Part shown: positions 35,765 to 39,908 of the stretch, piece after piece
How positions within the stretch are numbered: the first letter of the stretch is position 1
Layout: every line of letters starts with the position of its first letter
Origin: a virus
Taxonomy: Duplodnaviria > Caudoviricetes
Strand: one strand, 5' to 3'
Length of the DNA: 64,000 nucleotides
Virus record (IMG/VR): IMGVR_UViG_3300032050_000002
Notes under the pieces: model-generated
Seen by the model: only the letters and a program-made list of their open reading frames with translations
The model's database searches: none
Told to the model about the DNA's origin: nothing
Translations under genes and position numbers: made by a program

Positions 35765-36442
35765 ATGAAAATTTGGCACATATCCGACACACATACATTC
35801 CACGGGTTATTAACAATACCTGAAAACATCGATATGGTTATCCATAGTGGTGACGTTAGTAACCCCCAAAATCAGTATCTAAACAAACCTGAAGTTGAGA
35901 ACTTCATCTATTGGTTCAGTAAGTTACCTATCAAATATAAAGTGTTTGTTGCGGGTAATCACGATACATCTATTGAAAAGAAACTAATAAACAAGATGGA
36001 TTTCGAGTCCAACGGTATTACCTATTTGGAAAATGATTTTGTTGAGATAGAAGGTCTTAAAATTTGGGGTTCACCAATAACTCCAACATTTGGAACAGGT
36101 TGGGCATTTAACAAAAATCGGGCAAAGACTCACGAAGTTTGGGCAAAGATTCCTGATGGAACTGACATTGTTGTTACTCACGGTCCTCCAAAAGGTGTGT
36201 TGGATTTATCTTATGATAGACTGAATCAATTGGAATTTTGTGGTGATAATTCTTTAAAAAAGAAAATGTTATCTTTAAATCCAAAGTTAGTTTGTTTCGG
36301 ACACATCCATAACTGTGAAGATATTATAAACGCTGGAACAATGAAACTATCTGTAAGTGATACCATATATAGTAATGGTAGTGTTGTTACCGATGGTAAG
36401 TTTGGTAAGTTAAGTAGTAATGGTAATGTATTTGAGATATGA
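35765..36442 (+). CDS. Metallophosphoesterase (calcineurin-like)
   Basis: ISDTH, HSGD, AGNHD, THGPP, GHIH. Confidence 0.9.
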   Translation: MKIWHISDTHTFHGLLTIPENIDMVIHSGDVSNPQNQYLNKPEVENFIYWFSKLPIKYKVFVAGNHDTSIEKKLINKMDFESNGITYLENDFVEIEGLKIWGSPITPTFGTGWAFNKNRAKTHEVWAKIPDGTDIVVTHGPPKGVLDLSYDRLNQLEFCGDNSLKKKMLSLNPKLVCFGHIHNCEDIINAGTMKLSVSDTIYSNGSVVTDGKFGKLSSNGNVFEI

Positions 36443-36466
36443 AATACAAAGATAAAACAAGAAAAT

Positions 36467-36820
36467 ATGAACTACAATAACATTATTATTGATTTCTTTA
36501 CTGGAATGAGAGGAATTCATGATTTATTTGAATCTATATATGAAGGATTATATGGTGGTGTTCAACGATATAAGGTAGAACCAAATGAAGGTATCTTTGA
36601 TAAAGATTTCTTAATAAAATTTATTAAGATAAATCAAGGTAATAATGATTTTGATTATGAACTTGGTAGAATTGGTTATAGATTTCTAACTTCAAATGAA
36701 GGGTTAAAAGAATTATCAAAATTCTACTTGAACGAGTTAAAAACATATAAACATGAATATGTATCAACTGAAGTTATTGAAAATTGTAAGAAATCGTTAA
36801 TTAATATAATAAACACATAA
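36467..36820 (+). CDS. Hypothetical protein
   Basis: ORF track. Confidence 0.7.
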   Translation: MNYNNIIIDFFTGMRGIHDLFESIYEGLYGGVQRYKVEPNEGIFDKDFLIKFIKINQGNNDFDYELGRIGYRFLTSNEGLKELSKFYLNELKTYKHEYVSTEVIENCKKSLINIINT

Positions 36821-36857
36821 TTTTAATTTTTTAAGAAGGGTGGTAAATTTTTATTGT

Positions 36858-36911
36858 ATATAACGTCTGATGATAAACAATCGTTTTAATGTTGTTTATC
36901 ATTTGTTATAT
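36858..36911. mobile_element. attC-like site 1
   Basis: ATATAAC-GTCTG-ATGATAAACAA...TTGTTTATCAT-TT-GTTATAT; near-identical core to site 4. Confidence 0.65.
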
Positions 36912-36935
36912 GAATGTAAATTAAAATTTGAAAAT

Positions 36936-37205
36936 ATGAGTAATATAGGTAGAATAATAAAAAATGGCTATTGTAATGGTTTCTTTGGGCGAGATTATGA
37001 TTTTCATAATTCTGTAATCATTGCTGAGGGAGATGAATACATTGTTATTAGAAAAGAAAATGGTATTGTTGAATTTGGTAATCTTCAATCTTGGGACTGG
37101 AATAGAAATGATGATGGAACTTTATCATATGGGATTTCTAATTTACAATGTATGAGTAGAGAAAAGAAACAAGAACTAATTGATAGTTGGTGTGGAGAAT
37201 TTTAA
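36936..37205 (+). CDS. Cassette A hypothetical protein
   Basis: Lies between GTTATATGAA (36905) and its complement TTCATATAAC (37211). Confidence 0.7.
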   Translation: MSNIGRIIKNGYCNGFFGRDYDFHNSVIIAEGDEYIVIRKENGIVEFGNLQSWDWNRNDDGTLSYGISNLQCMSREKKQELIDSWCGEF

Positions 37206-37213
37206 TTTATTTC

Positions 37214-37308
37214 ATATAACGTTTTGCGTATATGCGAGGTACGCCAAACAATAAACTTAAATATTTGTAAACCGCTTCGTGGCGTATCTTGCATATACGC
37301 TGTTAGGC
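37214..37308. mobile_element. attC-like site 2
   Basis: ATATAAC-GTTTT-21-bp imperfect stem...T-GTTAGGC. Confidence 0.65.
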
Positions 37309-37323
37309 ACAGTTGTTTTAATT

Positions 37324-37533
37324 ATGACAAAATTCGATAACGGTTTTATTCTTTCAACCGATGAACTGAAAGAATTGCTTGAAAAAGCGTTTAGTAATGG
37401 TGCTTTATCTCACGCTAAATGGGATGGACAAAGAGATACTTGTTGGTCAAATGTTAATGAAGATATGAAAGAAGAAGTTTCAGTAATTCTTTCTGACCTT
37501 AACAGTAAGGTGGTCACTAACAATTGTGCCTAA
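37324..37533 (+). CDS. Cassette B hypothetical protein
   Basis: Stop codon lies inside GCCTAAC; flanked by GTTAGGCACA / TGTGCCTAAC. Confidence 0.7.
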   Translation: MTKFDNGFILSTDELKELLEKAFSNGALSHAKWDGQRDTCWSNVNEDMKEEVSVILSDLNSKVVTNNCA

Positions 37534-37668
37534 CTATTACAGATATATTTAGGTTTTCTGATATTTATATATAAAATAAAATTATGAGCAAAGAAATGAG
37601 AAAATACATAGACACTTTCAAACAGAGACTAACTGAATCAGAAAACTTGAATATATCTGATGTTAGTG
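37528..37668. mobile_element. attC-like site 3 containing ATATTTAT motif, ATG and leader-peptide coding sequence
   Basis: GCCTAAC-TATTA-23-bp stem (CAGATATATTTAGGTTTTCTGAT / ATCAGAAAACTTGAATATATCTG)-AT-GTTAGTG. Confidence 0.65.
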
Positions 37669-37871
37669 ATAGTAATCAATTCAAAGTAGGGGATAAAGTT
37701 ATAAAAAACGAAGAAACTTGGGAACCAAATGATTTTGATAGTTGGGGAAGAGGAATTGGTGTGGGAATTATAGTTGAGCCTCCTTTTGAAATGGATGAAG
37801 GTGAAGTTGATGTAAGATGGCCTAATGGTAGAAGTTTTGAATTCACACACCAATTACGAAAGGTGAATTGA
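37584..37871 (+). CDS. Leader (from attC-like site 3) fused to cassette C protein (SH3/KOW-like small domain)
   Basis: MSKEMRKYIDTFKQRLTESENLNISDV | SDSNQFKVGDKV...VRWPNG; junction at GTT 37662. Confidence 0.7.
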   Translation: MSKEMRKYIDTFKQRLTESENLNISDVSDSNQFKVGDKVIKNEETWEPNDFDSWGRGIGVGIIVEPPFEMDEGEVDVRWPNGRSFEFTHQLRKVN

Positions 37872-37878
37872 TTATTAT

Positions 37879-37932
37879 CACTAACGTCCGATGATAAACA
37901 ATCGTTTTAATGTTGTTTATCATTTGTTAGGT
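37879..37932. mobile_element. attC-like site 4
   Basis: CACTAAC-GTCCG-ATGATAAACAA...TTGTTTATCAT-TT-GTTAGGT. Confidence 0.65.
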
Positions 37933-37989
37933 TTAGTTAAATTATTGTTTTACGAATGAAAAAAACAGATTATTACGAAATTTATATTT

Positions 37990-38020
37990 AAAACCTGAAA
38001 TAATTTTTCAGGTTTTTTTT
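37990..38020 (+). terminator. Intrinsic terminator after cassette array
   Basis: AAAACCTGAAA-TAATT-TTTCAGGTTTT plus T-run. Confidence 0.75.
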
Positions 38021-38053
38021 GTTTAATTCAAATTAATTTTGTATCTTTGTATT

Positions 38054-38698
38054 ATGGAAACCGATAAAAAGACATATAATAAAGAGATTGATGAGGCGGT
38101 TGAACGTGTTAACAACGGTCAGTTTGTATCAAATGAAGAAGTTATGAAAGAGATTGATGAATTGTTTGTTAAACCGGTAATCTTCCTCGACCACGATGGT
38201 GTCATCTGCCTTTCAACGGAATGGGGTTCTCGTTTCAAAAATAAAGAAGGATTGGACTCTGTATTTGACCGATTTAATGATAAAGCGATTAAGGTATTAA
38301 ATCAGATTATTGAAGAAACAGATTGTGAAATTGTTATTAGTTCGGATTGGCGTTTTCACGCACCATTAGAACAGATGCAAGAACTTTATCGTATTCGTGG
38401 AGTTAAGAAAGTTCCGATTGATTATACCACAACTGGTTTAGATTGGAAACAATTTATGACTATAACACCAAATAATGAACTTGAAGCAACACGTAGTTTT
38501 GAGATTTTAAATTGGTTGGAGGCACATCCCGATGTTACAAAGTGGGTTGCGGTTGATGATTTGAATATGAAGGAACAATACGGTGGTATCGATGGAAACT
38601 ATAAATATGGTTTAACAAACTTTGTTCATACTCCCCGTTCAAAAGAAGGTATTAAACAATCAGGAGTCAAAGAAAAGATAATTAAGTTTTTAAAATAA
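38054..38698 (+). CDS. HAD-superfamily protein (HAD_SAK_2 / RNA-repair type)
   Basis: IFLDHDGVI, IVISSDWR, WVAVDDL. Confidence 0.75.
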   Translation: METDKKTYNKEIDEAVERVNNGQFVSNEEVMKEIDELFVKPVIFLDHDGVICLSTEWGSRFKNKEGLDSVFDRFNDKAIKVLNQIIEETDCEIVISSDWRFHAPLEQMQELYRIRGVKKVPIDYTTTGLDWKQFMTITPNNELEATRSFEILNWLEAHPDVTKWVAVDDLNMKEQYGGIDGNYKYGLTNFVHTPRSKEGIKQSGVKEKIIKFLK

Positions 38699-38745
38699 TT
38701 TGGTAAATTAAAGAAGATTTTGTATCTTTGTATTGTTCTTTGAAA
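38699..38745 (+). promoter_or_regulatory. Host-type promoter plus boxA-like element for the RNA cluster
   Basis: TTTG-N20-TATCTTTG then GTTCTTTGAAA; no ORF follows. Confidence 0.6.
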
Positions 38746-38840
38746 GATTTATTGTGTTGTTCCCTTGAGAAAGGAAGTGCATTACCAGTAGAGGAATCAA
38801 GTTGTGCTCTACCAACACAGAGGACTTCTCACCCTCAAAT

Positions 38841-38967
38841 AGTCAGGTGACATTTGGTGTCATTAGTGTGGGAATGAATGTATACGACTGTCAAGTCAGT
38901 GACGTAACTGGCCAAATCCTACTACGGGTAGTATACGGCTAAACAGGTTCGAATCCTGTCCTGACTA
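38841..38967 (+). ncRNA. tRNA-scaffold RNA 1
   Basis: AGTCAGG/CCTGACT acceptor stem, short D hairpin, ACAGG-TTCGAAT-CCTGT T-arm, A73; multibranch insert in place of anticodon arm. Confidence 0.75.
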
Positions 38968-39182
38968 CAATGAGTAAGAGATACTCATTGGTCTTTGGTC
39001 AATAGATGGTTAAACAGGACTCGCTAAAATCTGGACAGCGAAAATGCCAGTTCGTAGGGCTCAAGGCGGCAATCACACCCTCTCCTACGTTGTGTGACTT
39101 TTTTAATAGGGGATGCCCTGTAGGTTTCATCAATAGGAAAAAACCGAAATAACTACTCACCGAATCTCAAGTGGGGAAATAT

Positions 39183-39308
39183 AGTCAGGTGGCGGAATTG
39201 GTAGACGCTAGAGCTGGAGTTAGGTCACACGCATTTGGGTTCGAGTCCCGTTAGTTGGGCCAGCTAGGAGAGCCGTAGACCGTGTGGGTTCAAATCCCAC
39301 CCTGACTA
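39183..39308 (+). ncRNA. tRNA-scaffold RNA 2
   Basis: Same acceptor stem; Leu-like GCGGAATTGGTAGACGC D-arm; GTGGG-TTCAAAT-CCCAC. Confidence 0.8.
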
Positions 39309-39415
39309 CTGAATCAGTTTGTCCGTGGGAACGACTTGAAAGAGTCACTGTAATCAAAATCCAATCACTGTCTCACTGGTGTATTGGGCTAAATGTGAGG
39401 AAAAAACGGTCATAT

Positions 39416-39514
39416 AGTCAGGTGGTGTATATGGTAACACCCTTCATTGTAAGGATAAACAAGGTTGATTGTTTATCTGGAAGGACGAAGTCGGTTCGAA
39501 CCCGACCCTGATTA
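39416..39514 (+). ncRNA. tRNA-scaffold RNA 3
   Basis: AGTCAGG/CCTGATT; GTGT/ACAC D-stem; CCTTC/GAAGG stem capped by a 9-bp hairpin; GTCGG-TTCGAAC-CCGAC. Confidence 0.8.
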
Positions 39515-39591
39515 CACTTGGTTTCGGTAGAGTTCCAGAAAGCATAGACTGAACAAAAAACAATCTACCTCGTTGACATAGAAGTGTCGTT

Positions 39592-39726
39592 AGTCAGATG
39601 GCGGAAACGGAAGACGCAACTGTGATGATTTTGCCGGAAGGTGTAACTCCTTTGTCTTAGGACATAAACAATAGCGGGGTTAATCAGTTCTCAATCATCG
39701 TGTGGGTTAGAATCCCACTCTGATTA
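39592..39726 (+). ncRNA. tRNA-scaffold RNA 4
   Basis: AGTCAGA/TCTGATT (compensatory 7:66 change); GTGGG-TTAGAAT-CCCAC. Confidence 0.78.
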
Positions 39727-39795
39727 CTGAAAATAAAACTCTGGGGTCAGGGTTTTGTTTCGCCGAAAGGTGTTGTTTTCAACGGTTCGAGTCCG

Positions 39796-39908
39796 AGTCA
39801 GGTGGCGGAATGTTAGACGCTTAAGGGTTGGATGGATGTTGCAACTGAAAAACAATGAATATAACCTTGAAAAAATCCATCGTGTGAGTTCAAGTCTCAC
39901 CCTGACTA
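39796..39908 (+). ncRNA. tRNA-scaffold RNA 5
   Basis: AGTCAGG/CCTGACT; GCGGAATGTTAGACGC; GTGAG-TTCAAGT-CTCAC. Confidence 0.8.

Follow-up and report, generated by a model that had tools for sequence, protein, structure and literature searches.

Integrons are the textbook gene-capture device of bacteria, their defining parts being an IntI integrase with a special insert and attC sites placed behind genes that lack promoters. Their platforms also provide start signals: examples are ORF-11 in attI1 and a start within the 5' conserved segment from which cassettes are translated. Integrons and clusters of attC sites without an integrase (CALINs) have also been reported in phages, with classical attC models (Qi et al. 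2023, PMC9892861). The internal proteins of T4 are diverse, and all that is common to them is a capsid-targeting leader (PMC3012670). In the PeSL cassettes of T4-type phages (PMC2839356, PMC4122927), a module of promoter and stem-loop flanks orphan genes in variable regions, and genes are gained, lost, and replaced at these modules; PeSLs comprise early promoters of the host sigma70 type and terminator hairpins, and they are shuffled by homologous recombination. Our literature searches returned no description of an Xer-linked, hairpin-first system on the coding strand or of recombination sites bearing a leader.

Here, we describe a phage locus with likenesses to each of these systems. Site 3 of its array is probably the 5' recombination hairpin of a self-contained cassette, belonging to an integron-like gene-capture system of large phages with T4-type heads. 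As with attC sites of integrons, the sites are imperfect palindromes of varied sequence and conserved form, with AAC and GTT in the outer boxes (GCCTAAC and GTTAGGC here). One folding strand is favoured, single-gene cassettes with mostly orphan genes form same-strand arrays, the box at the start of a cassette complements the box at its end, and the main array of relatives adjoins the gene of a tyrosine recombinase (Xer/IntI clade, SAM_4 N-domain).

Origin of the Sequence

The window, by which we mean the whole stretch of 64,000 nucleotides that was analysed, corresponds to bases 32001-96000 of a 107-kb IMG/VR virus record (about 29% G+C), the completeness of which was estimated at 37%. DNA near-identical to the record was present in lake-water metagenomes of many studies, and the genes of the window are preceded either by a promoter of the Bacteroidota type (TTTG...TAnnTTTG) or by the motif ATATTTAT. 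Related records of 150-320 kb revealed a T4-type (gp23-type) major capsid protein in four of five cases and a T4-type prohead protease in three of five; a prohead protease (Peptidase_S77) was not found in the window's own record, which is 37% complete. The carriers are probably large freshwater phages with T4-type heads and Bacteroidota as hosts. A search of prokaryote genomes with the leader pattern introduced below matched 11 contigs from metagenome bins only, their taxonomy being inconsistent, and gives no host call.

Ten large ORFs of the window yielded three PHROGs matches, each of unknown function, and no ribozyme or known RNA was detected across the whole window by Rfam at the gathering threshold. 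The region 38700-39900 has a raised G+C content of 39% and includes an Rfam match at 39183-39308 on the + strand, where 126 nt align to a tRNA model of 71 positions. Despite this match, ARAGORN found no tRNA across the whole window; the region has the look of tRNA-like scaffolds with large inserts. Its neighbours are a gene with a HAD_SAK_2 "RNA repair" domain (38054-38698) and a metallophosphatase gene (35765-36442).

Organization of the Array

Four sites of a single design were found between 36861 and 37929, each consisting of TAAC, 4-5 nt, stem, loop, stem, 1-2 nt, and GTTA, with mismatches that are G.T on the coding strand. No site of this design lies outside the interval in the 107-kb record. 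The features, all on the + strand, are as follows.

36861..36908, +, site 1: TAAC, 4-nt spacer, 13-bp hairpin with a 9-nt loop, 1 nt, GTTA; heads unit A
36865..37220, +, unit A: site-1 hairpin and a small ORF, probable start at about 36936, stop at 37205
37217..37305, +, site 2: TAAC, 5-nt spacer, 21-bp hairpin with a 33-nt loop, 1 nt, GTTAGGC
37221..37534, +, unit B: site-2 hairpin and an ORF at 37324-37533 (69 aa)
37531..37665, +, site 3: R'' TAAC 37531-37534, spacer 37535-37539, 5' arm 37540-37562, loop 37563-37636, 3' arm 37637-37659, R' GTTA 37662-37665
37535..37885, +, unit C, the putative mobile cassette: hairpin of site 3 carrying the promoter-like motif and the leader, then the domain and the terminal TAAC
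37560..37576, +, phage promoter-like motif: ATATTTAT at 37561, extended form GATATTTATATATAAAA
37584..37871, +, ORF of 95 aa: predicted helix at residues 3-18 (ending L-T-E), disordered linker at 19-30, SH3-like beta domain at 34-95
37662..37683, +, extended R' box: 5' end of the unit C body, partner at 37864-37885
37864..37885, +, extended R'' box: 3' end of unit C, overlapping the stop codon and ending in TAAC
37882..37929, +, site 4: final site, of the same kind as site 1

Sites 1 and 4 are 85% identical, and site 4 is followed by a terminator-like hairpin with a T-run near 37990-38015. The 5' and 3' ends of unit A pair with each other. In unit C, an inverted repeat of 29 nt spans the gene (37655-37683 / 37864-37892, 90%) and covaries between cassettes. 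At the boundary of units B and C, the TAA (37531-37533) of the TAAC at 37531-37534 is the stop codon of the unit B ORF, the recombination box overlapping the gene end.

Site 3 has arms of 23 nt (37540-37562 and 37637-37659) that are 91% complementary and separated by 74 nt, the stem showing just two mismatches, both of them G.T on the + strand. Its RNA fold reaches -36.5 kcal/mol versus -22.8 +/- 3.5 for shuffled sequences (z = -3.9), one of 200 shuffles being equally good. The outer boxes read GCCTAAC (TAAC 37531-37534) and GTTAGTG (GTTA 37662-37665), with spacers of 5 nt after TAAC and 2 nt before GTTA. From 37561 on, ATATTTAT shares the last 2 nt of the 5' arm, and the ATG at 37584 is 15 nt further on. 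Codons 1-18 of the ORF lie in the loop, with L-T-E as residues 16-18; codons 19-26 (SENLNISD) belong to the 3' arm, and the GTT at 37662 supplies V27. Linker residues 19-30 are encoded by the 3' arm and the R' box. A preliminary description of this DNA had reported a 23-bp stem enclosing ATATTTAT, the ATG at 37584 and leader codons, with SENLNISDV encoded by the 3' arm and a frame crossing the GTT at 37662. This is confirmed by the pairing of the arms and by the translation of the ORF, which runs to 37871.

For the 95-aa protein, an AlphaFold (AF2) model displayed a mean pLDDT of 83, with values above 90 in the domain (34-95) and low confidence in the linker (19-30). A fold search with residues 34-95 gave SH3 and MIB/HERC2-like matches, which are weak (E 0.03 or worse), and Pfam gave no match for the ORF. 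Protein searches found the domain alone, as proteins of 64-70 aa, as well as behind other N-termini, amounting to about 186 clusters in all. At the protein level, P0005 carries the same SH3-like domain with a type-B leader (see below) in front.

The short 48-nt hairpin type of sites 1 and 4 (36844-36947, 37884-37987) reached summed contig depths of 500-1200 in lake metagenomes, most bins flanking such hairpins having depths of about 5-50, which makes it a very abundant repeat across the phage community. This type also matches LR756500.1, the 462-kb record of an uncultured phage. At the upstream edge of the array, one low-depth contig of run X14 (36435-37215) joins the end of the metallophosphatase gene to a point just before site 2, omitting a 117-aa ORF, site 1, and cassette A; in one relative (L073), the array begins directly after the metallophosphatase gene.

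Boundaries of the Mobile Unit

The preliminary description had regarded site 3 as the 3' attC of cassette B with a crossover at G|TT (37662), behind which cassettes lacking a start would be expressed as fusions. Such a crossover is that of classical integrons (G|TT of R'), and it fits the similarity of leader modules, which stops about 12 nt past GTTA with unrelated bodies following. It is at odds with the contigs on which single units are present or absent, and we consider it improbable. The DNA of the 69-aa cassette B protein occurs letter for letter on six other contigs (L157-L162). On L157 and L158, the neighbours of unit B differ on both sides, homology beginning right after the upstream TAAC and ending at 37534, before the hairpin of site 3; on L159-L162, 100% identity over 36888-37534 is followed by a site-4-like hairpin in place of site 3. 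Unit C is missing as a whole, hairpin included, from L158-L162, where the matching background is 100% identical. In three of the four runs that hold the flanks (99-100% identity), the body of unit C has zero depth, and a contig of run X10 with the joint 37529>37881 and five ambiguous letters deletes exactly 37535-37885, i.e., 351 nt. Divergence immediately after TAAC was likewise seen for L014 versus L017/L055 and for other cassette pairs and clusters, and informative pairs keep the hairpin with the downstream body while the downstream neighbour changes.

Around unit C, homology breaks at 37534/37535 and at 37885/37886, each time directly after TAAC. This means that the mobile unit comprises spacer, hairpin, GTTA, body, and TAAC, and that the hairpin and leader of site 3 appear to move together with the SH3-like domain as one unit, 37535-37885. 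Every informative comparison breaks after TAAC, ahead of the hairpin and behind the body, instead of at the GTT at 37662, and cassette B, to which site 3 had been assigned as a site donating a start, occurs 100% identical without site 3 behind it (L158-L162). The hairpin thus heads its own gene, the ORF 37584-37871 falling entirely within unit C. Cassette C had further been said to have no start of its own. Past the GTT junction, the first in-frame ATG does not come before residue 69 of the ORF, and the statement holds under the boundary chosen there; that boundary itself finds no support in the homology comparisons.

A contig of run X3 that enters a different body at 37675 could be read as a body swap behind an unchanged leader. 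This reading was rejected, because copies of the arm are very numerous in the metagenome (bin depth 340) and the contig is not assignable to the same strain.

Folding and Pairing of the Sites

From relatives, 318 sites were collected, 246 of them unique; as the detector requires TAAC and GTTA, the constancy of these boxes across the 246 sites is built in. The stems of the 318 sites displayed 5152 Watson-Crick, 674 G.T, and 31 A.C pairs on a strand that was set independently, by the spacer asymmetry of 4-5 nt versus 1 nt. This excess of G.T over A.C points to selection for folding of the coding strand, a bias equally compatible with RNA structure and with single-stranded DNA.

Positions beyond TAAC and GTTA vary and covary. 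In 176 cassettes, the bases after each GTTA pair, across the gene, with the bases before the next TAAC, the pairing at positions 5-15 being 73-89% versus 39-56% with shuffled partners; 102 distinct octamers were found among these cassettes, 130 of which share a conserved G.T at position 11. The R'' box of site 3, GCCTAAC, matches RYYYAAC, and its R' box, GTTAGTG, matches GTTRRRY only as GTTRR. An ORF start inside the site, in the frame in which GTT reads Val, was present in 84 of the 246 sites (22 and 10 for the other two frames). Judging from these counts, the supply of a start codon is a general property of the hairpins. The leaders encoded by other hairpin types are very different, some of them acidic and N-rich, others basic and amphipathic.

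The Linked Recombinase

A tyrosine recombinase was not found in the window's own record (37% complete). Among ten related records of 148-318 kb, eight carry exactly one Xer-like gene, and within 10 kb on either side of it, all 55 sites of these eight relatives lie upstream on the same strand, with none downstream and none on the opposite strand. The densest array, in one genome, counts 17 sites in 7 kb and, as with integrons, remote arrays without a recombinase also occur. P0265, a member of 266 aa, contains SAM_4 and Phage_integrase domains; the top-scoring NCBIfam model is archaeal XerA / "integron integrase", with a score under the cut-offs for both. Its alignment with the archaeal XerA-like 4a8e runs end to end, whereas against IntI4 (2a3v) 42 query residues stand opposite 90, about 48 residues being missing at the IntI-specific insert. 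The recombinase family is highly conserved and forms more than 120 clusters with 77-89% identity, nearly all of 266 aa and automatically named XerD.

In some relatives, the recombinase is altered (L058, G010:97575-98000; L148 in G001; L147 in G004). One altered gene has a leader and a cassette fused in frame to the catalytic domain (241 aa), and two others show open frames of 135 and 160 aa only. In L144 and L145, the last TAAC of the main array lies about 75 nt before the recombinase ATG without a hairpin, followed by a short A/T-rich stretch (TAGATTATATC... / TATAATATATC...) like the start of a hairpin 5' arm. By its sequence and place, this stretch is a candidate primary insertion site, attI-like.

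The hairpins could instead act as RNA alone, in mRNA processing, stability, or translation control, the genes being shuffled by homologous recombination as in PeSLs. The G.T wobbles lie on the transcribed strand, the promoter-like motif and the stem-loop are combined in one site, and the identical arms of leader types A and B could allow homologous exchange of loops; PeSLs, for their part, give rise to mini-circles and border orphan genes of hyperplastic regions (PMC2839356). However, the 5' arm of site 3 is located upstream of the promoter-like motif, so that a transcript from the motif cannot form the stem. Moreover, adjacent hairpins belong to many unrelated sequence types, yet the breaks always fall at TAAC, and a recombinase gene is closely linked to the sites, all of which point the same way. 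The hairpins are not followed by a U-tract, and no Rfam family matched, the sole hit on 36800-38050 at E up to 1 being a spurious miRNA (E 0.87). The differences from PeSLs lie along the same lines: the hairpins here are diverse, bounded by TAAC and GTTA, free of a U-tract and linked to a recombinase, breaks fall between unrelated hairpins, and the motif is phage-specific and located in the loop. We give the RNA-only explanation little credit. Single-strand transposons of the IS200/IS605 kind, which insert 3' of a fixed tetranucleotide (TAAC in our case), restored by each insertion at the end of the element, and whose strand-specific folding and subterminal hairpins adjoining the cleavage point recall the units described here, are very improbable, as the five related records searched (three at least 90% complete) gave no match to an HUH Y1 transposase (PF01797, Y1_Tnp), each unit has one hairpin only, and the enzyme linked to the arrays belongs to the Xer/IntI clade of tyrosine recombinases.

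In comparison with classical integrons, our integron-like reading has to accommodate several differences. The phage recombinase is about 48 residues short in the region of the IntI insert, and the array is located upstream of the co-directional recombinase gene, which stands at its downstream end. Unlike attC, which folds on the bottom strand and has extrahelical L-box bases, the phage sites favour the coding strand and have symmetric stems with conserved G.T wobbles and no bulges, asymmetric spacers (4-5 nt versus 1 nt), and outer stems of 12-29 bp, about a third of them giving a start codon. Each hairpin heads its own cassette instead of trailing it, and the break falls after TAAC, not at G|TT. 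With a recombinase lacking the IntI insert, a folded coding strand, and stems without bulged bases, site 3 does not qualify as a canonical attC. Like ORF-11 in attI1, the recombination platform gives the cassette gene translation initiation and an N-terminal extension; unlike the fixed attI side, the start signal here is inside the hairpin of the mobile cassette and travels along.

Conservation of the Leader

A protein search found the first 30 residues of the 95-aa ORF on quite different proteins. With a degenerate DNA pattern for ENLNISDV, 58 loci were retrieved from IMG/VR, nearly all of them N-terminal leaders of type A (MSKEMRKYIDTFKQRLTES-) or type B (MKDLKHIKRFNESE-) with unrelated sequence after them. 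Clustering revealed 55 families of bodies among 76 proteins; the junction lies at ISDV / GTTA plus about 8 nt, and the similarity of the module ends about 12 nt past GTTA. Most of about 50 independent loci retain the upstream arm, at 21-35 nt ahead of the ATG and with both G.T pairs unchanged. Both results, one leader on many unrelated C-termini and an inverted upstream arm conserved in homologs, are those that the preliminary description had named as support for its reading, and the retention of the arm at about 50 independent loci argues against site 3 being a chance structure. Among pairs of hairpins with at least 90% identity, 38 of 41 have unrelated flanks on both sides. Pfam gave no match for ten other leader-bearing proteins.

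The leader is conserved in two layers. Of 52 contexts, 49 carry the identical 23-mer in the 3' arm, even though 48 synonymous variants would have satisfied the search, and a Ser codon, AGT, is conserved at stem positions 10-12 as part of the site. This means that ENLNISDV-x-x-S, which is predicted to be disordered, is to be seen as a translated DNA element and not as a peptide signal. In contrast, 21 unique leaders of the MSKEMR type keep Ile9, Asp10, and Phe12 across synonymous codon changes, and most of them likewise retain the terminal L-[NT]-E, so that the loop-encoded helix ending L-[NT]-E is conserved as protein. In about half of the 21, the module stands outside an ENLNISDV-type hairpin, and the extended motif AATATTTATATATAAA precedes all but two (19 of 21). 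The type-B leaders have a weak codon periodicity, as coding sequence should show.

The leader is single-copy in the 107-kb record, no further DNA copies being found. ENLNISDV also occurs within a protein of 2182 aa (L032); with different codons, no upstream arm, and about two chance matches expected, this occurrence was rejected as chance.

Exchange at TAAC alone cannot account for one hairpin-leader module heading 55 unrelated bodies. Candidate routes would be a second exchange near GTTA, homologous exchange via the identical arm of 23-35 nt, or a process of cassette genesis. Classical integrons pose the same puzzle of how cassettes arise.

Promoter-Like Motif and Possible Capsid Targeting

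The motif ATATTTAT stands 4-17 nt before the ATG of about 35 ORFs of the window, on both strands, and presumably acts as a promoter. At many ORFs (e.g., 7254, 11727, 27033, 50724(-), 57828(-)), the distance is 4-7 nt, which would leave transcripts almost without a leader. Recurring N-termini throughout the window, among them MKFIITES, MRLRLTEP, and MKKVIRLTE, share an [IL]-T-E motif, several of these proteins being paralogs. A motif of the ATATTTAT type precedes one prohead-protease gene; directly upstream of the relatives' capsid genes it was looked for and is absent, and a putative "late" timing is thus drawn from one protease gene and from analogy.

Similar to the internal proteins IPI-IPIII of T4, where a short conserved leader ending L/I-x-E heads many unrelated small proteins, the 55 body families found here are unrelated proteins with one conserved N-terminal leader ending L-x-E. 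The cargo proteins are orphans as well, and the relatives have a T4-type capsid protein and prohead protease. Unlike those of T4, the leaders are longer (18-20 aa), of unrelated sequence, nested in a recombination hairpin, and known here from sequence alone. By this analogy, the helix ending L-[NT]-E might be a capsid-targeting propeptide that is cut by a prohead protease of the T4 type, a tentative assignment to which we give somewhat less than an even chance. The conservation of the loop helix at the protein level keeps the idea viable. Since other hairpin types encode quite different leaders, targeting is not a general role of the hairpins and, if real, would be confined to the MSKEMR and MKDLKH types.

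Proposed Mechanism and Significance

In the integron-like system that we propose, gain, loss, and exchange of units would proceed by breaks directly after TAAC. The enzyme responsible is likely to be the phage-encoded Xer-like tyrosine recombinase of 266 aa, the gene of which stands at the downstream end of the main arrays of relatives, and it would act on the coding strand, presumably folded as single-stranded DNA. With the hairpin placed before the gene and on the coding strand, it would be able to carry expression signals. The loop of the site-3 type would supply the phage-specific promoter-like motif, the ATG, and a helix of 18 residues, and the 3' arm and the GTTA box would be translated as a flexible linker (SENLNISDVSDS) into the SH3-like domain. 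Excision is predicted to yield a circle in which 37885 abuts 37535 (...TCACTAAC | TATTACAG...) and, on the emptied molecule, a junction between 37534 and 37886.

A wider reading would see a plug-in arsenal, in which integron-like swapping of the Xer type is combined with expression hairpins, one type of which adds a cleavable capsid-targeting leader. We rate it as unlikely as a whole; if it were true, the bodies would be made from a phage promoter, loaded into the head and injected with the DNA, e.g., as an anti-defence protein. Should the leader prove to be capsid-targeting, this would represent a natural way of loading virions with diverse proteins. Tools might also be made of the structured sites and their compact recombinase.

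With an Xer-like enzyme without the insert, coding-strand sites ahead of the gene, and sites that carry motif, start, and leader, the system would perform an integron-like function while breaking several of the rules of integrons. Belonging to abundant large phages of lakes, it bears on the evolution of integron recombination from Xer systems and could explain the turnover of many orphan genes in big phages.
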